IMG/VR virus record: IMGVR_UViG_3300045988_105923
Length of the DNA stretch: 50,563 nt
Origin: a virus
Reading direction: 5' to 3' (one strand)
The translations under genes were made by a program, and so were the position numbers. Shown one piece after another: positions 118-47,213 of this stretch; positions within the stretch are counted from its first letter, which is position 1; each line of letters starts with the position of its first letter. The notes beneath the pieces were generated by a model. The model made no database searches, was not told where the DNA came from, and was given only the letters and a program-made list of their open reading frames with translations.

Positions 118-1479
118 TCACACATTTAAGGAATATTCTATGTGCCTATCAGGGTATATTTTGATTTCTTTGACAATAATTCTCCAAAATTCTCGTTTTT
201 CTTCGCGGTTGAGTCCGTCGTAAGATTCTTTCCAGTTTTCGGTTAACACCCTATCAATACTCTCGAAGTCTTGCTTTTGCTCAGGGAGTGCGGCTTTCTC
301 CAAATCACTGATTTTTGCAAGCAATGCTTCACGGTCTGTCTTTAATTCTTCTAGTGTGATGATATCATTCAAATATAAATCCTTCAGTTTGTTTAACTTT
401 GACTTTGCAGCAGAGATTTCTGCACGTGACCTTTTGTTGATTTCCGCATTTTTGAGAGCGGAAAAGTTGGCCTTGTATTCGTGAAATTTATTGGCTACTG
501 TCGCAAGAAGATACTCTTCAATTTTCCTTTCACCAAGATTAACGCGATTTTGGCATCCATTCTGCTTTGTATAGTGTCCGTTGCAATTGTAGAACACATA
601 CGTCTGCTTTGTGTTAATACGAGCACCCATCCTGTTGCCGCACTCCGGGCAAACCACTAATCCGGAAAACAGATAGGTACGATTATTCTTTGCCTTTCGG
701 ACAACCTTCCTCCGCATAGCTTGAATTTGTTCATGATCTTCTTTAGTGATATAGGCAGGACACATTCCGTCCATATTGTAATATTTCCCATAATATGTAG
801 TGCTGCGCAGCATCTTATCAATAAGATGGTATCTCATTAAAACACCATATTTTTCTCTGATAAATTCGGAAGTTTTAGAAATGGAACCGGAGGCTAAATA
901 CTTCTTAAAGAAATCGTTAACAAGAGCCTCTTTGGATTCGTCTTTTTTGAATGATTTTCCTTCAATTTTATAACCAAAAGGTATATTCCCGGTAAGAGGC
1001 TCCAACCGCGCCCGCTTTCCCTCAAAAACGAATTTGATACGCTCACTGGTCCGGTCTGCTTCATCTTGGGCAACGGACAACATGATATTTACTTTCAGCC
1101 GCCCGGATGCGGTTGTCGTCTCATAATCCTCTTGTGTCGCCTGCCAAGATACACCATATTGATCTAGGATTTCCTGAACAGCATAGTAGTTCCCCACATT
1201 TCTAAACCATCGGTCCAGTTTTATAAACAATATCAGATCAATTTTTCCAACCCTGCAATCATCCAGAAGTTTTAGGAGTGCAGGGCGTTTCTTATATGGT
1301 TTTCTGGCGGAGATGCCAGCATCTTCATAGATGCCGACAATCTTCATTCCATGGGATTTTGAAAATTGGGTCAGACTATTTTTTTGGTCTTCCAGAGACA
1401 AGCCATGCCGGGCTTGTTCTTCTGTACTAACCCTTATATATAATGCAGCTCGTTGCATAGCTCCACCACCTAAGATCAC
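118..1479 (-). CDS. int: Large serine recombinase (phage integrase)
   Basis: The N-terminal resolvase/invertase motif is AALYIRVSTEEQ...GLSLEDQ. This is followed by a recombinase domain, a zinc ribbon (CPECGNRM...YNCNGH) and a C-terminal coiled coil. Confidence 0.93.
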   Translation of the reverse strand: MILGGGAMQRAALYIRVSTEEQARHGLSLEDQKNSLTQFSKSHGMKIVGIYEDAGISARKPYKKRPALLKLLDDCRVGKIDLILFIKLDRWFRNVGNYYAVQEILDQYGVSWQATQEDYETTTASGRLKVNIMLSVAQDEADRTSERIKFVFEGKRARLEPLTGNIPFGYKIEGKSFKKDESKEALVNDFFKKYLASGSISKTSEFIREKYGVLMRYHLIDKMLRSTTYYGKYYNMDGMCPAYITKEDHEQIQAMRRKVVRKAKNNRTYLFSGLVVCPECGNRMGARINTKQTYVFYNCNGHYTKQNGCQNRVNLGERKIEEYLLATVANKFHEYKANFSALKNAEINKRSRAEISAAKSKLNKLKDLYLNDIITLEELKTDREALLAKISDLEKAALPEQKQDFESIDRVLTENWKESYDGLNREEKREFWRIIVKEIKIYPDRHIEYSLNV

Positions 1480-1513
1480 GCCGCCAGGAAATTCCTGGCG
1501 GCTTATTTATATG

Positions 1514-2233
1514 TTATTGATCGTTGGTTTCCATCTCATATTCTAATTTTTCTTCATTTACAATGTACATTTTATCGGTATATGTTTCTATTCCATCAAT
1601 ATGTTCGGATAGTTTGGGCTTAATGTGTTGTTTCATTGGGTCCAGTATAAAATCAATTCCGCTTTTTCTTGCCATCTTCGCTACAGGAATGAAATCGCTA
1701 TCTCCTGCAATTAAAACGATTTGGTTTACATATTTTCCATAAGATAAAGAGGCTACATCCAGACCTATTCTCATATCGACGCCCTTTTGTTTAACATCTA
1801 ATTTAAAGTCATCTTTGGTTAAATCAGAAATTAACTTCTTTTCTGATATAATTTCAGATAACGCAGACGGCTTTAAAATATAAGTGGCTTGCGATTCAGC
1901 CAATTCTCCGCGCCGAATTGCAAATTTTCTTTTTTTGGATAGAGCCTCAAAAAATGCATTTGTCCAGCGTGTTCCAGCCATTTCTGCATACGATATGGTT
2001 TCTTTTGTGAGCGGATGAATAATCTCACGTGTCATTGGGGGGCAGTCATAATAAAATATTCTATATAAATCGCGAGGTTCATCTGGCTCTGATATATGAA
2101 GTAAGCAGTACCTGAATAATTCATCTGCGCGTTCAGCAGCGGTTTTGTTTTTCCCCCATAAAGCGATGGCTCGCTTTCTATAATATCCTCCGTCTACAAG
2201 AATTGCGGTTTTTCTAGTCTCTCTTATATTCAT
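1514..2233 (-). CDS. NYN (LabA/DUF88-like, PIN-fold) domain protein, copy A
   Basis: It carries TAILVDGGYY near the N-terminus and a later GVDMRIGLD...IVLIAGDSDFIPV motif, both typical of NYN ribonuclease-like domains. A GAGG RBS precedes the ATG. Confidence 0.8.
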   Translation of the reverse strand: MNIRETRKTAILVDGGYYRKRAIALWGKNKTAAERADELFRYCLLHISEPDEPRDLYRIFYYDCPPMTREIIHPLTKETISYAEMAGTRWTNAFFEALSKKRKFAIRRGELAESQATYILKPSALSEIISEKKLISDLTKDDFKLDVKQKGVDMRIGLDVASLSYGKYVNQIVLIAGDSDFIPVAKMARKSGIDFILDPMKQHIKPKLSEHIDGIETYTDKMYIVNEEKLEYEMETNDQ

Positions 2234-2250
2234 AGTCTCCCTCGATATAT

Positions 2251-2309
2251 AAAAATAAAACCTCTGGGGTCAGATCATCCCGAAAGGTGGGAGCCCTCGC
2301 CCAGAGGTT
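2251..2309 (-). terminator. Intrinsic-terminator-like hairpin in the leader of the NYN-A gene (possible attenuator)
   Basis: A 10-bp stem forms between AACCTCTGGG (2259-2268) and CCCAGAGGTT (2300-2309). On the minus strand it is followed by TTTTATTTTT. It sits between the promoter at 2344-2372 and the RBS/ATG at 2233. Confidence 0.5.
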
Positions 2310-2343
2310 ATGATAGCTTATACAGCTCTTTGCTGTATGATAT

Positions 2344-2372
2344 ATATTATGCTCCCAAATTGAATTTGTCAA
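2344..2372 (-). promoter_or_regulatory. SigmaA-type promoter reading toward NYN-A
   Basis: On the minus strand, TTGACA (2372-2367) is followed by a 17-nt spacer and TAATAT (2349-2344). Confidence 0.6.
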
Positions 2373-2590
2373 TAGTTTTTATTCGTGTTTATTTCTGTAT
2401 ATTCAAACTTGTTCGAGTGGGTTAGTGTTTGTAAGTGTTTATTTGATTAAATTATCAGGTGATTCCTGACGGCGGCTTTTCACTAGAATGAAAACCTATC
2501 ATAGAAAGTAAAATTGTGGTATAAAAGTAAAGACCACTAGATATAGGTCAATACAAAATATAAATGGAAAGAATTGTGAAAATCTGCTGA

Positions 2591-2619
2591 TTGCCTTATA
2601 TTCTCCTCGGTGCTATGAT
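2591..2619 (+). promoter_or_regulatory. Plus-strand promoter overlapped by a LexA box
   Basis: TTGCCT (2591-2596) is followed by a 17-nt spacer and TATGAT (2614-2619). A TG sits at the extended -10 position. Confidence 0.5.
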
Positions 2620-2633
2620 ATTATCAAATCACT

Positions 2634-2647
2634 AGAACAAATGTTCT
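2634..2647. promoter_or_regulatory. Cheo-type LexA (SOS) box
   Basis: AGAACAAATGTTCT is a palindrome matching the Gram-positive consensus GAAC-N4-GTTC. It lies about 15 nt downstream of the -10 element. Confidence 0.6.
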
Positions 2648-2671
2648 CAAACGAGGAGGGGCAACTGGAAT

Positions 2672-2833
2672 ATGGATGAACGAGATATGACCTGCGGTGA
2701 ATTGCTCTGCGAAAGAGTCGATAATGAAAATGATTTTATTTCATTTCTTCGCTTTTGCGCTGATCGGCTAAATAAAGACGAGCCAGTTCAATCAATTTGG
2801 AACGCCTATCAAGAGATAAGGAATCAAAAATAG
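2672..2833 (+). CDS. 53-aa ORF downstream of the LexA-controlled promoter, either a candidate SOS-induced antirepressor or a carrier of antisense RNA
   Basis: The product reads MDERDMTCGELLCERVDNENDFISFLRFCADRLNKDEPVQSIWNAYQEIRNQK. A GAGGAGG RBS sits 11 nt upstream. The 3' 98 nt are antisense to the repressor gene. Confidence 0.35.
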   Translation: MDERDMTCGELLCERVDNENDFISFLRFCADRLNKDEPVQSIWNAYQEIRNQK

Positions 2834-3059
2834 ATAAGATTTCAGCTTTACCGTCCTCAGAAATGGGGGCGGTATTTTTTTCGCCCAAAATATCTCCGAC
2901 GGTCACTCCGAGCGCCGCTGCGACTTTAGACACACGGTCTATAGACGGAGAACTTTTATCCCATTTATTTATTGTCCCGTTTCCAAAACCGCATTCTTTT
3001 TCCAAAGAAAATAAAGATTTTCCAGTTAAAGAACACAATTCTCTAATCCTGTCGACCAA
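2736..3059 (-). CDS. CI-like XRE-family HTH repressor without an S24 peptidase domain
   Basis: The HTH_3 motif is IRELCSLTGKSLFSLEKECGFGNGTINKWDK...VSKVAAALGVTVGDIL. The C-terminal tail is short. The gene is oriented with the integrase. Confidence 0.85.
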   Translation of the reverse strand: MVDRIRELCSLTGKSLFSLEKECGFGNGTINKWDKSSPSIDRVSKVAAALGVTVGDILGEKNTAPISEDGKAEILSIFDSLSLDRRSKLIELARLYLADQRKSEEMK

Positions 3060-3083
3060 AAAATCACCCCTTGAAAATAATTA

Positions 3084-3126
3084 GTAAATTTCCTAAATTT
3101 TTGTTGACAATCGGTAAATTTGCTAA
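3084..3126. promoter_or_regulatory. Two copies of the 13-mer GTAAATTT(C/G)CTAA, candidate operators
   Basis: The copies are at 3084-3096 and 3114-3126, exactly 30 nt apart. The second fills the spacer of the plus-strand promoter. Confidence 0.4.
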
Positions 3127-3132
3127 TATAAT
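3104..3132 (+). promoter_or_regulatory. Consensus sigmaA promoter (early lytic, PR-like)
   Basis: TTGACA (3104-3109) is followed by a 17-nt spacer and TATAAT (3127-3132). The -35 lies in the palindrome TTGTTGACAA, which also gives TTGTCA on the minus strand toward the repressor. Confidence 0.7.
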
Positions 3133-3263
3133 AGAGGCATAGGGTAACAAAAACCAAGCCCCTATATGATACGGGCCTAATCGGAATATATGTAATTGTA
3201 TCAGCAATTCAATGTTAGCATATTTTCCGATTTCCGTCAAGGAAAAGGAGGGTGTTTTCTAAT

Positions 3264-3782
3264 TCATTTTAAGAAATTTTGGGAGGGAGGGATTTGTTTT
3301 TCTGATAGAAATTTACTGGAAGATTCATAAATCGCTTTTACTCTTTCATAATTCTTCCAAGTATAAAGAGGCCCAGTATAGTGAGGGAATCCAGCATTTC
3401 CAGTCCAAAATGTGTTTGCGCAATCAAACGCTGCAATCAATGCGGACGTAAACTTTTCGTAGTTTCTTCTTTTGGCTCCATCTGTTTTTAAGGTCTCGAT
3501 TTTCTTCTGATTGCTCTCCAATGCACGATCTATAAACTTATCGACTGTTAACTCTATATTTTCCAATATTATATTGTAGTCATGTGTTGGAGTAGCCCCT
3601 TTAAATATTTTGTATTTTTCATATTGCGATAAATGAAGAAGCAAATCTAATGTAAAATTGATCCTTCCAAAAAACACCGCTGGATTTACAGTTGTATTTA
3701 TCAATTTTTCGCTGTCTTTGAGCTGTCGTATATTCGATTCGATACATTGGATTTCGGACCTTGATAGTTTTTTCCAAAACAT
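3264..3782 (-). CDS. Hypothetical protein encoded between the repressor and cro (an immunity-region moron)
   Basis: A long AT-rich ORF with no motif I recognise. The start is uncertain: either the ATG at 3782 with AGGAGG 15 nt upstream, or the GTG at 3821. Confidence 0.6.
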   Translation of the reverse strand: MFWKKLSRSEIQCIESNIRQLKDSEKLINTTVNPAVFFGRINFTLDLLLHLSQYEKYKIFKGATPTHDYNIILENIELTVDKFIDRALESNQKKIETLKTDGAKRRNYEKFTSALIAAFDCANTFWTGNAGFPHYTGPLYTWKNYERVKAIYESSSKFLSEKQIPPSQNFLK

Positions 3783-3867
3783 AATCGTAAATATCTCCCT
3801 CCTTTGTCCCAATAATATCACTAAGGGGGGGACGATTCAAGAAGATATTCCAATCGGAGGTGATACC

Positions 3868-4089
3868 TTGATTCTTGACAATATCAAGCGTCTTTGTCGG
3901 GAGAACAGCATAAACATCACGGCCTTGGAGAAGGCTGTCGGACTTGGTTTCGGGACGGTTTACAAGTGGGGTAAGGTTTCTCCCAGCGTGGACAATCTGA
4001 AACTGGTAGCCGATTATTTCTGCATCACGGTGGACGAGCTTCTTTCAGAAGATAGCAGCACCAACAGAGAAAAGGAAGCCCTCCAATGA
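3868..4089 (+). CDS. Cro-like XRE-family HTH regulator
   Basis: A TTG start sits 7 nt after GGAGG. The HTH motif is LDNIKRLCRENSINITALEKAVGLGFGTVYKWGK...LKLVADYFCITVDELL. Confidence 0.75.
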   Translation: MILDNIKRLCRENSINITALEKAVGLGFGTVYKWGKVSPSVDNLKLVADYFCITVDELLSEDSSTNREKEALQ

Positions 4090-4152
4090 TAGAGGGCAGC
4101 AGAATCAAATCCAAAAATAACTGCGCACGCAAATAGAGTGAGGGGAGTGAGA

Positions 4153-4332
4153 ATGATGGACACTTTTAGAGTAACAAAAGACAAAATGTTTCTTGGAGAA
4201 AAAGAGATCGTGTGTTGCACTGGGTTCAAAATCATCGCAAAAGCAGGCGAAGACCCGGAGGTGGAGCTCCGAGTCATCGTTGAAAATGTAGATATTGAGA
4301 ATTACGGTGCAGTCCCTATGCAAACGGAATAG
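4153..4332 (+). CDS. Hypothetical small protein
   Basis: The ATG follows a GAGGGGAG RBS. The 59-aa product begins MMDTFRVTKDK. Confidence 0.5.
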   Translation: MMDTFRVTKDKMFLGEKEIVCCTGFKIIAKAGEDPEVELRVIVENVDIENYGAVPMQTE

Positions 4333-4651
4333 CGGACTTGATTTTGCCGAGCCAATCAAGGATTTGAGAAATACCGCCCGGAAATCTCTGTTCCATGTAG
4401 ATGATTCCTTCATCTTCAAGTTGGAAGCCTCCGAGGACAAATCTCTTCACGAACCCCTTCGACTTGAGTTCGTTTAGCGATTCTAAAAAGTCCGGTAATC
4501 CAGCATCTTTCGGAAAAGATTCAGGCCATTGGTCGCGGGAAGAAAAATCTTTTGCAGTCTTCTTCGATGCCCCGGATTCTCTCCTTGCGAGATATTCCTT
4601 ATAAATCAAACAAATAGCCTTATCTGCATCTTTTGTTAGGTTAATTTCCAC
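4316..4651 (-). CDS. Hypothetical protein
   Basis: A GTG start follows a GGGAGGTG RBS. An extended -10 (TGTTACAAT, minus strand, 4683-4675) lies upstream. The ORF track begins at 4684. Confidence 0.6.
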   Translation of the reverse strand: MEINLTKDADKAICLIYKEYLARRESGASKKTAKDFSSRDQWPESFPKDAGLPDFLESLNELKSKGFVKRFVLGGFQLEDEGIIYMEQRFPGGISQILDWLGKIKSAIPFA

Positions 4652-4776
4652 AGTTTCACCTCCCTTCTTTCTGGATTGTAACACAGAAAAGCATGGAGGG
4701 AAAAGCTAAATTTCAAAAAAACGTGAGCTGTTTGCACATTCTGAAGATCAAGGTGCATGAGGGGGGGTAAGCATCA

Positions 4777-4959
4777 GTGCTGACAGTGCGCTTACTGATT
4801 TATCTAATCATGTCATTAGCGTTTATGTTTTCTTCTCTAATATCATGCGACATTATAAAGCAACATCCGGAGAGCAACAAACCTTGGCTCATTGCGCTAC
4901 CGTCACTGATACTGACGGTCATGCTCTTGGTGGTCATGGTACATGACTTACTTTCTTAA
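4777..4959 (+). CDS. Possible small two-TM membrane protein
   Basis: A GTG start lies 9 nt after GAGGGGGGG. The product has two hydrophobic segments (LLIYLIMSLAFMFSSLI and LIALPSLILTVMLLVVMV). Confidence 0.35.
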   Translation: MLTVRLLIYLIMSLAFMFSSLISCDIIKQHPESNKPWLIALPSLILTVMLLVVMVHDLLS

Positions 4960-5379
4960 ATCTTTTTGCATAGAGATTACCAAATTTTCTGTAATTTCTT
5001 CATATTCAGAAAGTAACTTTGAAAAATTTGGGGGTGGATTCAATTTCATAGTGGAAATAAGTGTGATGCTATCTTTATATGAGCGTATCAGTTCAGCAGA
5101 TCCAGGTGACGCGAACAGAAGCGCTTTTGTATAAGCGTCCATAAATCTGGTCACCTGTTGTTGATTGAAGGCATCAGAAAATTCACCGCCTACTTTCAGC
5201 AGTTCATAATAGGCAGAAATCGTCTCCTGAAGTATCAATTCTGCCTGTTTTGCTTTCCGTGCTCCACGTTGGGTTATGAAAGCCGAAAGAACGGAGCAAA
5301 TAGAAACGGCAGCAATAGAAACTACAGATGCAATGATAGTGGTGTTAATAGATATCGCATTAACTAATTCATTTTCCAT
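4948..5379 (-). CDS. N-terminally membrane-anchored hypothetical protein
   Basis: An AAAGGAGG RBS precedes the start. The N-terminal TM segment is TTIIASVVSIAAVSICSVLSAFI. The gene has its own promoter at 5401-5429. Confidence 0.7.
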   Translation of the reverse strand: MENELVNAISINTTIIASVVSIAAVSICSVLSAFITQRGARKAKQAELILQETISAYYELLKVGGEFSDAFNQQQVTRFMDAYTKALLFASPGSAELIRSYKDSITLISTMKLNPPPNFSKLLSEYEEITENLVISMQKDLRK

Positions 5380-17843: not shown

Positions 17844-18087
17844 ACCATAAACTTTCATAATCTCATAGAAAAAATAGCGAATTCATAAAGTTTTATGAGT
17901 GAGCGGAAATATGTATGCGAAAATGGGAGTGTGGGGGAGTATCTCTGCACTCCCACTCCTTTTCCCCTCTGCCCGGAGGTTCACCTCCGCCTCCGGGCCT
18001 TCCAACAAGCGCTGTCTCGCTGAAAACTGCGCCAGAGTTCCGCAATCGGGGCCGATATGCGGCGTGTGACAATTAAGCGGGAAGCGC

Positions 18088-18115
18088 AAATAAAAACCGC
18101 CCCACTATGGGGCGG
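18088..18115 (-). terminator. Intrinsic terminator of the TIR-like gene
   Basis: The stem pairs CCGCCCC (18097-18103) with GGGGCGG (18109-18115). On the minus strand it is followed by TTTTTATTT, 9 nt past the stop codon. Confidence 0.6.
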
Positions 18116-18123
18116 CGATAAGA

Positions 18124-18540
18124 TTATTTACCAAGGATAGCGTTGATAACCGAACTTTTATTCCAGCCGACCATTATATCTGCATTATTCTGGATTTTAA
18201 CTGGAATCCTCTCTTGTCCCCAAGGTTTTAACCCGATTATATATTTTCCCTTGGAAACAGATGTATCAATTTCAAAGTCAATCCAATCGCTATAGGCAGC
18301 ATACATCCCAGAAATAACAATTATTTTTGATGCGGGAGAAATCTGGTTTTCTAGTAATTTTTGGAGTTTATTTTTTCCTACTGTAGTGGAGGGATCAACC
18401 AAAGGATCATGATATGGAACAGAATAGTTACTCCAATTTAATATCCCGTCTGCTTTTGCTTCATCGATCCACTTGACGACCGTCTGATAATCGTCAGAAT
18501 ATTTCCATGCGTGACTAATGAAAATGTGATAATGATCCAT
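18124..18540 (-). CDS. TIR-like domain protein (ThsB/DUF1863 family)
   Basis: The ATG at 18540 follows AAGGAG. The product begins YHIFISHAWKYSDDY (betaA) and contains KIIVISGMYAAYSDWIDFEIDTSVSKGKYIIG, which matches the S-x-W-x(3)-E catalytic-Glu region of TIR/ThsB-like domains. The gene is AT-rich. Confidence 0.75.
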   Translation of the reverse strand: MDHYHIFISHAWKYSDDYQTVVKWIDEAKADGILNWSNYSVPYHDPLVDPSTTVGKNKLQKLLENQISPASKIIVISGMYAAYSDWIDFEIDTSVSKGKYIIGLKPWGQERIPVKIQNNADIMVGWNKSSVINAILGK

Positions 18541-18579
18541 AATGAACAACTCCTTTATGTTCTGTTTTGAGGTGAGAGA

Positions 18580-18771
18580 ATGGGAAAATATAGAAAAAAA
18601 CCAATTGAAATTGATGCCTTTCAAATTGAACAAGATATGATTATTAAAACGCTTGAAGGAGATATGAGGGCTCAAAGAGGAGACTGGATTATCACCGGAG
18701 TAAACGGGGAGCAATATCCATGTAAACCGGATATATTCGATAAGACTTATGAACGAGTAGATGTGGATTGA
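18580..18771 (+). CDS. Small PGDYG-like protein on the opposite strand between the TIR-like and SLATT genes
   Basis: A GAGGTGAG RBS precedes the start. The product [12 protein letters not shown]...[28 protein letters not shown] resembles the small phage/bacterial PGDYG family. Confidence 0.55.
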
Positions 18772-19232
18772 TCCGGCAATTCCGGCTTTTTAACTGGTTC
18801 TTGCTGTAGCATCTTCCATTGATTGTTTTCAGCTGAAATTATTTGTTCAATATTTCGAACAAATAGGTTATCTATTGTGTCATCATTGTTGTTATATGGA
18901 GATGAACCCGTCAAATATAGGCTCTTTTGGTATCGAAGAAGTTCACATGTAGAACGATACTGTATATAATTTTCGTGATATTTATATAATTTTGTGATAG
19001 ATTCCAAAATTGTTATAATCACACCTAAAACACCGATGACGATAGGTATAATAAAGCATCTTGTAGAATAACCGGACAGAAGAGGGATGGTTGCAGCAAA
19101 AATAATTTCCCAAAATTGTATTCGCTTGTAACACTTTTGACAATGCAATGATTTTTTATCGTACCAGTCGATTTGGTTATCTACTCGTGTTTTTATATAT
19201 TCATTAATGTCCATTTTACAGAACCGCCCCAT
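18747..19232 (-). CDS. DUF4231/SLATT-like two-TM protein
   Basis: The sequence [33 protein letters not shown] is followed by a second TM segment ([20 protein letters not shown]) and then [26 protein letters not shown]. This is the DUF4231 pattern. The start may instead be the ATG at 19214. Confidence 0.7.
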
Positions 19233-19271
19233 TTGCTACTTTAAAAGCTGCATAAATTTGGGATTTTTTAT

Positions 19272-19301
19272 ATTATCACATAAAAACAACAGGGTAGTCA
19301 A
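19272..19301 (-). promoter_or_regulatory. Promoter of the SLATT gene, possibly of a SLATT/TIR transcript
   Basis: On the minus strand, TTGACT (19301-19296) is followed by an 18-nt spacer and GATAAT (19277-19272) within TGTGATAAT. Confidence 0.5.
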
Positions 19302-19356
19302 TACATTAGAAAAATATTTCGGAGAAATTCGCTACTCCTCGCCGCATGAGGCGGGC

Positions 19357-19638
19357 GGTGGCATCATTGAGCGGTGATGGAATAGGTAGACAGTAAACAA
19401 GGCAACGAGGACGGACAAACGTGCTGCCACCTTGCTGACGAGTAAGGCCGTCTCTCCGATCGTAGCTGCGCCATGTGAGGTGCAAATCCTCACCCGCTCA
19501 AATATGCCGCCCCGCAGTTGCACGAGACGGGGGTGGGGATAATGGGAGGAAACGCATGGCGGGGTAATCTCCCGCCGTCTCTCGAAAAATGGTTGAATAC
19601 CGGGGATAGGCCGACGGGCCGAAAAGGGAGGTGCCACC
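19357..19638. ncRNA. Candidate structured non-coding RNA of unknown class and strand
   Basis: This GC-rich stretch has no convincing ORF. Nested complementary segments are 19357-63/19632-38, 19368-74/19494-500, 19475-80/19488-93, 19524-30/19575-81 and 19544-48/19569-73. Confidence 0.3.
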
Positions 19639-19701
19639 TTACTCCTCTTCCCTGGGTCAACATAAATGGTGGAAACGAAAATTCAGAAAGGCGGTATATC
19701 C

Positions 19702-20337
19702 ATGAACGACTTGATGATTTTTAACAACCCTGAGTTTGGGGAGATTCGTACTGTGGGATTGGACGGGGAGCCATTGCTGGTTGGTAAGGATGTGGCATTA
19801 GCACTGGGTTACACGAACCCACAAAAGGCAATCCGTGACCACGTTGATGATGAGGATAAGACGGTGAACGAAACGTTCAGCGTCAACGGGACACCGATTG
19901 TACTTATCAACGAGAGCGGCCTGTATTCCCTCGTCCTTTCCAGCAAGCTTCCCGGGGCCAAGAAGTTCAAGCGCTGGGTGACGAGTGAGGTATTACCCAG
20001 CATTCGCAAGCACGGGGCTTACATGACCTCGGACACGATCGATAAGATGATAAACTCTCCGGAGTTTGGCATCAAACTGCTTACTGCGCTGAGAGACGAA
20101 CAGGATAAGAGAAAGGCGCTGGAGACAGAGCTGGATAGGAGCAAGGAATGGTATTCCATCAAACGAGTAGCACATCTGAATGGAGTATCATATAAGGTTT
20201 TTGACTGGCGGAAGCTCAAACTCGAAAGCCAACGACAGGGATATGGAGTTAAAAAGATTTTCGATGCCAATTATGGCGAAGTCAATACTTACCACGTGAA
20301 CGTGTGGGAAAAAGTTTACCCCAATATGGAACTATAA
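19702..20337 (+). CDS. Bro-N / KilAC-type antirepressor-like protein
   Basis: The N-terminus FNNPEFGEIRTVGLDGEPLLVGKDVALALGY...AIRDHVDDEDK is the Bro-N signature. The C-terminal half resembles KilAC/ORF6C. Confidence 0.8.
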   Translation: MNDLMIFNNPEFGEIRTVGLDGEPLLVGKDVALALGYTNPQKAIRDHVDDEDKTVNETFSVNGTPIVLINESGLYSLVLSSKLPGAKKFKRWVTSEVLPSIRKHGAYMTSDTIDKMINSPEFGIKLLTALRDEQDKRKALETELDRSKEWYSIKRVAHLNGVSYKVFDWRKLKLESQRQGYGVKKIFDANYGEVNTYHVNVWEKVYPNMEL

Positions 20338-31150: not shown

Positions 31151-31420
31151 TTACTGAGCTTTTTTCAATTCTTCAATTTGCCGGGTATGTATAGCCACCG
31201 TTTTTTCAAGATCATCCACGCGATCTTCCATAATGTCTATAGCTTCTTGCGGGATCATTTTAGACCCCATCGAATCTAGCTTTTCAAACAATAATTTGAA
31301 TTGTGGGGCAAATGTATTCTCAATGATTACCTGCATATTTGCCATAGACTCTTTGAGGATTTCTTTCTTCTGCTGCTCCATCATTGTATGAATCGCTTGC
31401 AGGTCCTTTTCATCTAACAT
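31151..31420 (-). CDS. Reverse-strand coiled-coil hypothetical protein (moron)
   Basis: The ATG at 31420 lies 8 nt after AAGAGG. The gene has its own consensus promoter and is AT-rich. Confidence 0.6.
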   Translation of the reverse strand: MLDEKDLQAIHTMMEQQKKEILKESMANMQVIIENTFAPQFKLLFEKLDSMGSKMIPQEAIDIMEDRVDDLEKTVAIHTRQIEELKKAQ

Positions 31421-31441
31421 CCCGATCACCTCTTGTTTGCT

Positions 31442-31470
31442 ATTATACGGGCTGGCTGGATAGCTGTCAA
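31442..31470 (-). promoter_or_regulatory. Consensus sigmaA promoter inside the tail module
   Basis: On the minus strand, TTGACA (31470-31465) is followed by a 17-nt spacer and TATAAT (31447-31442). Confidence 0.65.
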
Positions 31471-31517
31471 GAAACTTGATTTGTTAACAACTCCATATTG
31501 AAACGGAGGAGGTTTTA

Positions 31518-31772
31518 CTAATTTATGTCCTCTTTACAAATTACAAAATGCTGTTTGCTTTCCACAGCTGTTCCGGCGTCTATGTAAGATGTTTGAAATT
31601 CATCCCAATCCGATGGTAGTTCCCAAACTACGTGACCAACGATTTCCATTCCAGGAGAAACGGCTCCTACAAAGACAACTGCATCATCAATACTGCCAAC
31701 TACGACTTTTGGAATTACTTTACTATCGTATGGAGCAATCAGATAGCTGTACCTGAGCCAGCGGAACACCAT
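31518..31772 (-). CDS. DUF4352-like fragment or small beta-sandwich protein, possibly the frameshifted 3' part of the upstream gene
   Basis: The ATG at 31772 lies 6 nt after GGAG. It overlaps the upstream ORF by 50 nt in another frame. Confidence 0.45.
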   Translation of the reverse strand: MVFRWLRYSYLIAPYDSKVIPKVVVGSIDDAVVFVGAVSPGMEIVGHVVWELPSDWDEFQTSYIDAGTAVESKQHFVICKEDIN

Positions 31773-32493
31773 CACATTCTCCGACAATAGTGATATAGTC
31801 TCCGTCATTTAATTGAGCAATCAAATCTGTTTGCTCGCCATCTTTTGGGAAGAAACACTGGATGGGATAAAGTCCATAACCATCATTTGTCTCAAGAGAA
31901 ATGCATGGGGCCTTTGTAACAATATCCTGCCCTATATTTTGAATAGTTCCGGCCACAACTAGAATCTTATCTTTATATAGTGCATCTGCGTTCACAGTGT
32001 TCTCTTTATACGCTGCCCACAAATCAGCGGCGGAAATGGTAATTTCCTCCGATTGGCTGGCCTGCGTGGGCGTAGACTGTGGCAGATTGTTTGAATCAGA
32101 GTTTAACGAACTATCAAAGCGGCTCCCAAAAGTAAGAAATACAGTGGAAAGCACAGCAACAACAATCACGGCCGAAAATGCAATATTTCCCTTAATTCGT
32201 CTGCTGCTTTTTCCTGGGGCGTTCTTGCTGTCGAAAGAGACGGTTTCTGGTGTGTTTGTTGCGTATTCGCTATCAACCACAATATGAGAACCAGATATAA
32301 TCGTATTCACGACCCTTGCCCTATCCTCCGGCAACAAGAGAATCGAAATAGAGCAGTCTATCTTTCGGCCCTTTTGGAACGAAATGGTATGCGGCCCGTC
32401 TTGGGCGTATGCAGAAATGGTCGTCCCATTTCGCAATGTCCCGACGACCTTACCGTCTAAAAGGACAGTAAAATCAACCGCACAGCCCCACAT
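31723..32493 (-). CDS. Membrane protein with a C-terminal tRNA_anti-like OB-fold domain
   Basis: The ATG at 32493 lies 6 nt after AAGGGAG. A central TM segment is IAFSAVIVVAVLSTVFLTF. The C-terminus ISAADLWAAYKENTVNADALYKDKILVVAGTI...DGDYITIVGEC fits the tRNA_anti-like pattern. Confidence 0.65.
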   Translation of the reverse strand: MWGCAVDFTVLLDGKVVGTLRNGTTISAYAQDGPHTISFQKGRKIDCSISILLLPEDRARVVNTIISGSHIVVDSEYATNTPETVSFDSKNAPGKSSRRIKGNIAFSAVIVVAVLSTVFLTFGSRFDSSLNSDSNNLPQSTPTQASQSEEITISAADLWAAYKENTVNADALYKDKILVVAGTIQNIGQDIVTKAPCISLETNDGYGLYPIQCFFPKDGEQTDLIAQLNDGDYITIVGECDGVPLAQVQLSDCSIR

Positions 32494-32566
32494 GGATTTC
32501 TCCCTTGTAATAATGATTTCTTTATATCCATCCACATAAATCTCTCCCCTCAAGGTGGTGTTTCAT

Positions 32567-46638: not shown

Positions 46639-47190
46639 TTATTTTTTAATAGCGTCAATGTCGTCTTGTGTCAACTCTCTTCTAACATCAGCAATTAGTG
46701 TCAAACTAGTGTGCGGATGGTGCGCTCTATCATATACTAACTCTATTTCAACGCCCTCGTTTTTTGCCGTTTCAATGGCTGGGATAAAGTCGCTATCTCC
46801 TGTAACAATAATAGCTTTTTCAATTCGCTGTTTGGCCGCCAGTAAAACCAGATCACACCCCAGTAAAATGTCAACCCTTTTTTGCTGGAAGATCGGTGCA
46901 CCATTCTTGTCTCTTCCTCGATATTCTAGCTTTCCGAGCCGAACCTCATATCTATCAAGCATTTCAAGAGAGGTCACAAATCTCTGCATATTATTGTACC
47001 TATCAAGATCACCTTTACTCGGAGTTTGGCTTTTATATGGCATACAGTTATAGTAATATGTACGAAGAATAGGATCACCACCAGCCAAACGGCTGCTTAA
47101 TTTTGAAAAATCGATCTGAGGTGAAGCAAAACTTTCTTTTAAAATTTTAGACAAATAAGCTCCGTCAACAAATATGGCAATTTTTCCCAT
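46639..47190 (-). CDS. NYN (LabA/DUF88-like) domain protein, copy B
   Basis: The ATG at 47190 lies 6 nt after GGAGGTG. The product carries KIAIFVDGAYL and QKRVDILLGCD...AIIVTGDSDFIPAIE. Confidence 0.8.
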   Translation of the reverse strand: MGKIAIFVDGAYLSKILKESFASPQIDFSKLSSRLAGGDPILRTYYYNCMPYKSQTPSKGDLDRYNNMQRFVTSLEMLDRYEVRLGKLEYRGRDKNGAPIFQQKRVDILLGCDLVLLAAKQRIEKAIIVTGDSDFIPAIETAKNEGVEIELVYDRAHHPHTSLTLIADVRRELTQDDIDAIKK

Positions 47191-47213
47191 ATCTAACACC
47201 TCCATTTTTCTCC

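Follow-up and report, generated by a model that had tools for sequence, protein, structure and literature searches.

A split TIR/SLATT cassette of a temperate gut phage, probably of the type VII Thoeris family, with a nested antisense PGDYG gene

Conserved neighbourhoods that pair a TIR protein with a two-transmembrane SLATT protein were described in firmicute phages, including Streptococcus Javan281 and Staphylococcus SN10, and a role of the pair in restricting superinfection was suggested (Iyer, Burroughs and Aravind 2022, PMC9503650). TIR+SLATT operons were subsequently named type VII Thoeris, with ThsB as the TIR protein and ThsH as the SLATT protein, and three such systems were found to defend, with E. 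coli and B. subtilis as hosts (Yirmiya et al., December 2025, bioRxiv 10.64898/2025.12.03.692087). According to the same preprint, the TIRs of type VII make canonical cyclic ADP-ribose (cADPR) only on infection, added cADPR is specifically toxic to carriers of the system, and neither Tad1 nor MoTad2 inhibits it. The three tested SLATT-linked TIRs belong to three different TIR clusters, and all of them made canonical cADPR. Here, a locus of this kind is described in the IMG/VR virus record IMGVR_UViG_3300045988_105923, a DNA stretch of 50,563 nucleotides that is called the window throughout. Three intact genes lie within positions 18088-19301, namely a ThsB-type TIR gene on the minus strand, a PGDYG gene on the plus strand and a SLATT_1/DUF4231 gene on the minus strand. 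By homology, this island probably belongs to the type VII Thoeris family. The TIR+SLATT pair itself is not new, since it was already known from firmicute phages in 2022, and the novelty implied by the original prediction, which had been made from the letters of the window, was overstated; the new aspect is the third gene, as a split three-gene architecture with PGDYG was not found described in the literature.

The TIR gene codes for a protein that matched the Pfam family ThsB_TIR (PF08937, 1.3e-13, 51.7 bits against a cut-off of 21.2), the PADLOC model ThsB (4.7e-15) and phrog_6988 (1e-27), and that carries the motifs IFISHAW and SDWIDFE. In an alignment with seven reference ThsB domains, F7, S9, G78, W86 and E90 were invariant, and E90 aligned with the Glu in the motif RWVRYE of B. 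cereus MSX-D12 ThsB. E90 is predicted to be the catalytic Glu, and the protein a synthase of an NAD-derived signal. The AlphaFold2 model (pLDDT 86.1) found the ThsB/TIR structures 9b7d, 8fz9, 8wcf and 6lhy in Foldseek with E values from 4e-5 to 9e-4, as well as the related nucleoside 2-deoxyribosyltransferase fold. The call of a TIR-like protein of ThsB layout in the original prediction was thus borne out by PF08937 above its cut-off, by the PADLOC ThsB model and by the modelled structure. Among the TIR sequences of Table S1 in the Yirmiya et al. preprint, the window TIR groups with TIR cluster 2734565194, which includes the validated type VII ThsB of Pseudohongiella (36% identity, 3e-25).

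The product of the SLATT gene matched NCBIfam SLATT_1 (1.8e-35, 121.8 bits, cut-off 41), DUF4231 (2.4e-22, 79.8 bits), Pfam SLATT_1 (1.7e-11, 44.7 bits) and phrog_7395 (4e-46). The DUF4231/SLATT identity proposed earlier for a gene at 18747..19232 therefore stands, but its start at 19232 is probably 18 nucleotides too far upstream, because all 15 aligned homologues begin at the second Met (MDI...), which places the start at 19214. Gene callers chose the 19214-type start in eight of eight TIR-anchored loci and kept the start of the longer form in eight short SLATT-anchored contigs. Hydropathy revealed a strong hydrophobic segment at about residues 52-72 with a weaker one ahead of it, at about residues 32-48, and the protein is a predicted signal-gated membrane effector. 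It is 44% identical to the SLATT protein adjoining the ThsB of a marine Alteromonadaceae locus (L065), a ThsB that in turn shares 68% identity with the validated Pseudohongiella ThsB, so that the comparison is with the effector beside a relative of a validated ThsB and not with the ThsH of the validated systems themselves.

Like type VII Thoeris, the island combines a stand-alone ThsB-type TIR, with its Glu, and a small two-transmembrane SLATT protein on one strand. It differs in that the genes of the tested systems have adjacent gene identifiers whereas those of the island are split by the opposite-strand PGDYG gene, and in that the island resides on a temperate phage, while the preprint mentions neither prophages nor a third gene. 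The neighbourhood described in 2022 is of the same family and setting, and both Javan281 and SN10 were recovered as relatives; however, helix-turn-helix and zincin-like neighbours are listed there and PGDYG is not, the order in the window is SLATT, reversed PGDYG, TIR, and the TIR belongs to another clade. Type I Thoeris also generates its signal by a ThsB-type TIR, and the model of the window TIR matches 6lhy and 9b7d, but the type I effector ThsA is a SIR2/SLOG NADase and that of the island a membrane protein; a ThsA-type effector of types I and II (SIR2-SLOG, or Macro with a transmembrane segment) was absent from the island proteins and from the called neighbours of a 99.8%-identical locus (L003). 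The TIRs of types IV and VIII share cluster 2734565194 with the window TIR, yet the island lacks their caspase-like protease or CMP-hydrolase/TPR effector. The cyclic oligonucleotide-based antiphage signalling systems (CBASS) with 2TM/SLATT effectors follow the same principle of a nucleotide-gated small two-transmembrane effector, and the PADLOC 2TM models matched weakly (E 0.004); CBASS signals through a CD-NTase/SMODS synthase and the island through a TIR, and CD-NTase (SMODS) was absent from the island proteins and the called neighbours of L003. Other PADLOC systems, including Rst_2TM_1TM_TIR, were rejected, since only the ThsB models and the weak CBASS 2TM effector models matched. The earlier statement that this was not a canonical Thoeris or CBASS locus holds insofar as SIR2, SLOG, Macro and CD-NTase are lacking, but the pair is now catalogued as type VII Thoeris. 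The functional reading made at that time, a phage moron in which the TIR makes an NAD-derived signal and the SLATT protein acts as membrane effector, agrees with the later findings on TIR+SLATT systems.

Several points weigh against the type VII assignment. Cluster 2734565194 is promiscuous, its partners also including caspase-like effectors (type IV, with N7-cADPR), CMP-hydrolase effectors (type VIII) and '3TM' effectors, and the window TIR is slightly nearer to the TIR of E. coli 328 type IV (39%) and to a '3TM'-linked TIR (45%) than to that of type VII; the Yersinia type VIII TIR is 35% identical. Of four Bacillus type VII systems assayed in B. subtilis, three did not protect the host (bioRxiv 10.64898/2025.12.03.692087). 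The SLATT and TIR genes of the window are not contiguous, and a weak TIR-specific promoter within the PGDYG gene is possible. Furthermore, the second hydrophobic segment of the SLATT protein alone clears a strict hydropathy threshold, and none of the PADLOC v2 models recognises this protein. Because the TIR cluster serves several effectors and the TIRs of type IV and '3TM' systems are slightly nearer, the identity of the signal is uncertain, and it could be that the TIR makes another ADP-ribose-derived signal, for example N7-cADPR as in type IV, to which the SLATT subfamily would be tuned. This is unlikely, as the SLATT-linked TIRs from three clusters all made canonical cADPR, so that the effector appears to define the signal, and the window SLATT is clearly homologous to the family of the validated effectors. 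Canonical cADPR is the likeliest signal of the island, since all three validated SLATT-linked TIRs make it.

The PGDYG gene is nested antisense between the SLATT and TIR genes and overlaps the 3' end of SLATT by 25 nucleotides. Its product reached 27.2 bits with Pfam PF14083 (cut-off 27.0), over profile positions 2-35 of 102 only, and 1.4e-28 with phrog_419, and by these profiles it is a short form that holds just the conserved core of the family. The suggestion of a PGDYG-like small open reading frame with a good ribosome-binding site was confirmed by these matches, the first of them just over its cut-off, and by the site GAGGTG. Sixty-three distinct orthologues were collected; an alignment of 18 sequences had 19 invariant columns, and the common core reads KKP...TLEG.... 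The AlphaFold2 model (pLDDT 86.7) is a small beta protein of six strands and one short helix, which models named 'PGDYG protein' in BFVD match with a TM score of 0.84. Between the Staphylococcus and the Flavonifractor phage copies, amino acid identity was 66% for PGDYG, 42% for SLATT and 24% for TIR, and at the DNA level the two PGDYG genes were 87% identical over 91 base pairs (bp). As judged from these comparisons, PGDYG is much more conserved than SLATT or TIR, and no other part of the cassette is so well conserved and so poorly explained, although the original prediction had taken the small gene as incidental.

The partners of SLATT_1 were surveyed in 160 loci, 80 from species genomes of GTDB and 80 from IMG/VR. 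The order of the window, SLATT, reversed PGDYG, TIR, occurred in 57 IMG/VR and 15 genome loci, and that of Staphylococcus phage SpT5, SLATT, TIR, reversed PGDYG, in 16 and 2, respectively. SLATT with reversed PGDYG and no detected TIR was found in three viral loci and one genome locus. Arrangements with a TIR and without PGDYG were seen in genomes and in none of the IMG/VR loci: SLATT followed by TIR in 13, TIR followed by SLATT in three, and SLATT between two TIRs in one. SLATT had no detected partner in four viral and 45 genome loci, several of the latter carrying TIR types missed by the queries. SLATT_1 thus had a ThsB-type TIR before or after it in 73 of the 80 viral loci and in 34 of the 80 from genomes. 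PGDYG was present within 1.6 kilobases of SLATT_1 in 76 of the 77 informative viral loci (of the four viral loci where SLATT stood alone, three are truncated at the contig end), and also in 18 of the 20 Bacillota genome loci that were informative. The gene was always on the strand opposite to SLATT, and it accompanied three TIR types in two gene orders; these are the type of the window, the type of SpT5 and B. nitratireducens, and a type of 197 residues from IME197 and Javan phages or satellites. Genome loci without PGDYG came from Proteobacteria, Acidobacteria and other phyla. In Clostridia and among viral metagenomes, the split three-gene architecture prevails, as counted above for IMG/VR.

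Two further loci deserve separate description. In the Clostridiales genome RUG055 (L047, 5001-6000), a TIR of the window type (4e-40) directly follows SLATT without PGDYG, which is rare in Bacillota. In Streptococcus satellite phage Javan277 (L260, 2501-3718), an XRE regulator is followed by a SLATT_1 homologue, a 197-residue gene and a reversed 60-residue gene; satellites of S. intermedius and S. oralis carry this arrangement, the 60-residue gene sits in the position of PGDYG, and 197 residues is the length of the RefSeq TIR in Enterococcus phage IME197. The cassette seems to ride on phage satellites as well as on phages.

One explanation for this linkage is that PGDYG is a built-in antagonist of type VII Thoeris, which would sequester or degrade cADPR or block SLATT or ThsB. 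Free phages would then use PGDYG as an anti-defence protein, and in prophages the antisense copy would allow lytic transcription to switch the defence off and the antidote on, so that the phage's own replication would be spared. Both the proposal and this elaboration of it are put forward tentatively. The linkage argues for antagonism through its frequency in the IMG/VR and Bacillota loci, its invariable opposite strand and its persistence over three TIR types and two orders, and so does the higher conservation of PGDYG relative to its neighbours. PGDYG is small, like the known sponges, and as Tad1 and MoTad2 fail on type VII, no antagonist of this type is yet known. However, the trio also lies in two chromosomal islands without visible prophage genes (L031 and L033), and PGDYG has no significant similarity to a known sponge or inhibitor. 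Among solved structures, no significant match was obtained, the best Foldseek match in PDB being ModTad2 (E 0.52, TM 0.44), and a profile search of all PDB sequences with PGDYG returned nothing.

The candidate identities tried for the protein were rejected one after another. Tad2 (DUF2829) sponges are small phage proteins as well, and Tad2 entries were the top Foldseek matches in PDB (E 0.5-2.6, TM 0.40-0.47), none of them significant; hhalign against a Tad2 alignment gave a probability of 0.2%, and Pfam PF11195 was not matched, so that PGDYG is not a member of that family and the resemblance is a weak lead at most. Lockin, Sequestin and TadIV-1 were set aside by their published descriptions, which also counts against antagonism: Lockin is without domain annotation and absent from INPHARED, Sequestin is alpha-helical (PF21825), and TadIV-1 is confined to Straboviridae.

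Outside the cassette, PGDYG leads a life of its own. Among the 80 best PGDYG loci in IMG/VR, 23 lay beside SLATT, 24 had a single stand-alone match and 33 a stand-alone match split by an insertion, the last apparently representing a longer form. The stand-alone loci that were inspected were ordinary strings of co-directional phage genes. In INPHARED, PGDYG-domain matches were found in 801 of 50,697 records, including large phages such as Twort, and SLATT_1 in 34. Cassette-linked and stand-alone copies did not separate from one another: nearest neighbours reached 93% identity, and at the DNA level the homology was limited to the gene. This intermixing ruled out a Thoeris-specific PGDYG lineage; for the antagonist proposal, the use of the same protein on its own by other phages is a point in favour. 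Phage proteins frequently contain the PGDYG fold, in many cases at the N terminus of a longer protein and in some cases joined to a MazG-like enzyme, and the domain is widespread across phages of many phyla.

The same distribution fits a second explanation, in which PGDYG is a conserved bystander, a phage gene perhaps of nucleotide or DNA metabolism beside which SLATT/TIR morons settled early in Bacillota phages. Tight packing would then have kept the trio together, and any regulatory effect would be merely in cis, from convergent transcription. Neither SLATT nor TIR lies close to roughly half of the nearest PGDYG homologues or to any of the more remote ones, the domain extends to phages of many phyla and to MazG-like fusions, and the type VII systems of Proteobacteria, two validated ones included, are without PGDYG. 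On the other hand, pure hitch-hiking hardly explains why the linkage outlasted three TIR replacements and a change of gene order, nor why 58 split-operon cassettes have overlapping 3' ends and the block moves as a unit. The bystander explanation, with its detail, is a possible one, though we doubt that it accounts for the trio. That PGDYG is a regulator acting in cis or in trans without antagonism is about as tentative a proposal as the antagonist. These judgements on PGDYG are separate rough estimates and not shares of a whole.

Two further occurrences of the domain were recorded. The PGDYG core lies in or beside genes annotated as MazG-like nucleotide pyrophosphohydrolase in the Microbacterium phages Pajaza and Schubert (H55 and H66), and it is found in the BFVD entry A0A5B8WIM2 of Arthrobacter phage Qui, which is annotated as nicotinate ribosyltransferase. 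These associations hint that the function of the domain may be related to nucleotides or NAD.

In the window, SLATT and TIR lie on one strand with 206 nucleotides between them, a gap filled by the opposite-strand gene; a single promoter-like site precedes the pair and a single terminator follows it. The terminator has a 9-bp stem with seven G-C pairs, a 3-nucleotide loop and a T-run, and its RNA folds with -17.8 kcal/mol (z -3.1), which agrees with the clean minus-strand terminator noted earlier at the end of the island. In 58 distinct cassettes of the window order, the 3' ends of SLATT and PGDYG overlap by 4-25 nucleotides or abut, and the start codons of PGDYG and TIR are usually 11-59 nucleotides apart. 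Since PGDYG is nested between the two genes with overlapping or abutting ends, a transcript from SLATT to TIR would run antisense through PGDYG over its full length. The original prediction had proposed such a transcript, read from the SLATT promoter through the small gene, together with a 9-mer that would occur once on each strand, facing PGDYG and SLATT, as a feature of the island. The proposed transcript fits the geometry conserved in the 58 cassettes, but the specific 9-mer does not look conserved. In fact, TGTGATAAT, a TG-extended GATAAT, has five copies in the window (11119, 17797, 18525, 19272 and 33134) against 0.55 expected from shuffles, and is not confined to the island. An extended -10 of the form TGnTAnn[A/T]T, a stricter pattern that TGTGATAAT itself does not fit, precedes PGDYG in 8 of the 58 homologous cassettes. 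With five copies across the window and so few cassettes bearing the stricter pattern, TGTGATAAT was rejected as a shared regulatory element; it may be a -10 form favoured by the phage or its host and not a feature of the island.

The orientation of the genes was compared with that of the surrounding phage modules. In the window and in the isolate phages SpT5, X2, phiCDKH01, IME197 and Javan235, a sample that is small and not independent, the strand of SLATT and TIR is that of the integrase or repressor, and PGDYG shares its strand with the lytic genes; the endolysin gene directly precedes PGDYG in IME197. This placement on the lytic strand fits PGDYG as a lytic-phase antagonist or switch. A crude flank-orientation test over all loci gave no clear strand pattern, since most cassettes lie in lysogeny modules whose genes match the SLATT strand.

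By analogy with the validated systems, the following course of events is proposed. In a lysogen, a minus-strand unit bounded by the promoter (about 19272-19301) and the terminator (18088-18116) would yield the ThsH-like SLATT and the ThsB-like TIR. Upon entry of a superinfecting phage, the TIR would turn NAD+ into the cADPR signal by means of E90; the signal would bind the cytoplasmic face of SLATT, causing oligomerisation and a breach of the membrane, and the infected cell would be halted before the invader matures. The outcome would be abortive infection or superinfection exclusion, to the benefit of the resident prophage. In the nested antisense layout, transcription of the defence genes and of PGDYG would be bound to collide. 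A different function, in which the cassette is an addiction device of toxin-antitoxin type or a timer of lysis with SLATT as a holin-like membrane toxin, is very improbable. The membrane toxicity of SLATT proteins, the compact and mobile form of the cassette and a small opposite-strand gene that recalls the layout of an antitoxin speak for it; nevertheless, homologous TIR+SLATT operons have been shown experimentally to defend against phages through signalling that depends on infection, a separate lysis region seems to exist in the window, and the cassette is usually in or beside lysogeny modules in the phages examined. The cassette is also absent from the closely related Flavonifractor phage Chenonceau, so the lytic cycle can proceed without it.

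The mobility of the cassette was evident from comparison of phage genomes. The backbone of the window resembles that of Chenonceau, in which the homology is interrupted around the island (Table 1), and tblastn of the three island proteins against the Chenonceau locus found none of them. At least three phage backbones that differ in their terminases carry the block 18018-19536 at more than 99.7% identity, and one of them also has a tyrosine integrase and an S24 repressor; contigs with an identical TIR protein (L004, L005 and L008) carry different packaging modules and the same block. The identical TIR protein was indexed in 121 blocks of the assembly collection, and the contigs of visible origin were from human-gut samples. 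G+C content is 0.32-0.37 over 18200-19400 and 0.47-0.54 on both sides, a dip that bears out the AT-rich, reverse-strand island first noticed there; the mobile block extends beyond the AT-rich part, to 17966-19326 or 18018-19536 depending on the comparison. Because of the near-identity across different backbones, the cassette is interpreted as a recently mobile moron, horizontally acquired and of low-GC origin. Its moron-like behaviour also follows from its own promoter-like site and terminator, its absence from Chenonceau and its presence in several backbones.

The window itself is a complete, circularly assembled genome of a temperate phage of about 50.5 kilobases, because an identical 77-bp direct repeat stands at both contig ends (1-77 and 50487-50563). 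The lysogeny module occupies the minus strand at 118-5379, and the plus strand carries the genes for replication, packaging and structure. The features located in this genome are listed in Table 1.

Table 1. Positions of the cassette, its genes and signals, and other features in the window
Feature	Position	Strand	Basis or remark
Integrase, large serine recombinase	118-1479	-	Resolvase, Recombinase and Zn_ribbon_recom domains
NYN-domain (LabA-like nuclease) gene 1	1514-2233	-	Pfam NYN 2e-7
Insertion relative to Flavonifractor phage Chenonceau (ON453904)	17966-19326		blastn homology stops at 17965 and resumes at 19327
Block common to the unrelated backbone L004	18018-19536		blastn, 99.8% identity
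Intrinsic terminator after the TIR gene	18088-18116	-	Stem-loop 18096-18116 and U-run; consensus scan
thsB-like gene, stand-alone TIR-like protein of 138 residues	18124-18540	-	Pfam, PADLOC and PHROG profiles
Candidate extended -10 TGTGATAAT for the PGDYG gene	18525-18533	+	Inside the first TIR codons; without a -35
Gene of the short PGDYG-domain protein, 63 residues	18580-18771	+	Ribosome-binding site GAGGTG; nested antisense between SLATT and TIR
thsH-like gene, two-transmembrane SLATT_1/DUF4231 protein of 155 residues	18747-19214	-	In-frame alternative start 19232 (161 residues)
Sigma-70-like promoter with extended -10, facing SLATT	19301-19272	-	TTGACT-18-TG-GATAAT, 10/12 matches, consensus match only
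int-alpA RNA motif (RF02996)	19599-19669	+	45.1 bits (gathering score 35.8), E 1.5e-7
NYN-domain gene 2	46639-47205	-	Pfam NYN 7e-16; PADLOC NYN 9e-9; candidate model HEC-09 1e-6

Around the island, further elements were observed. A search with Rfam found no known RNA family inside the island, the sole match being int-alpA just outside, and a tRNA scan found none in the island. The int-alpA motif ends at the start codon of a Bro-N antirepressor gene (19666-20337), just beyond the mobile cassette. Between the SLATT promoter and this motif, the GC-rich non-coding region 19350-19520 forms a long hairpin with arms at 19357-19374 and 19494-19511 (-71.1 kcal/mol, z -3.75, plus strand), which matched no Rfam family. 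The interior of the hairpin, 19368-19471, is a blastn gap in otherwise identical copies of the cassette (L009, L012-L014 and L017), and the alignments of L012 and L017 resume past it. Elsewhere in the window, the two NYN-domain genes may be further defence-type morons of the phage. Two reverse-strand genes also lie inside the forward-strand tail module (31151-32553, minus strand), one for a protein of 276 residues with a tRNA_anti-like OB-fold domain (4e-21) and the other for one of 92 residues without a family match.

The window adds an example from a gut phage to a described system and documents a cassette that moves nearly unchanged between unrelated phages of the human gut. This split architecture will be overlooked or wrongly labelled by pipelines that demand a TIR gene directly beside its effector gene; for the PGDYG gene in a TIR+SLATT context, no literature was found, and the word PGDYG was absent from every paper of the library searched. 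The canonical cADPR of type VII Thoeris also serves as a second messenger in human immunity, and a viral inhibitor of type VII is not known. PGDYG is a testable candidate for this missing inhibitor or, alternatively, for a built-in regulator of a new kind. More speculatively, and with considerable doubt, the short PGDYG proteins could form a large unrecognised family of phage proteins that antagonise cADPR/SLATT immunity, the nested copy being a switch between the lysogenic and the lytic strand. If so, lysogenic transcription would make the defence, while lytic transcription would silence it and make the antidote.

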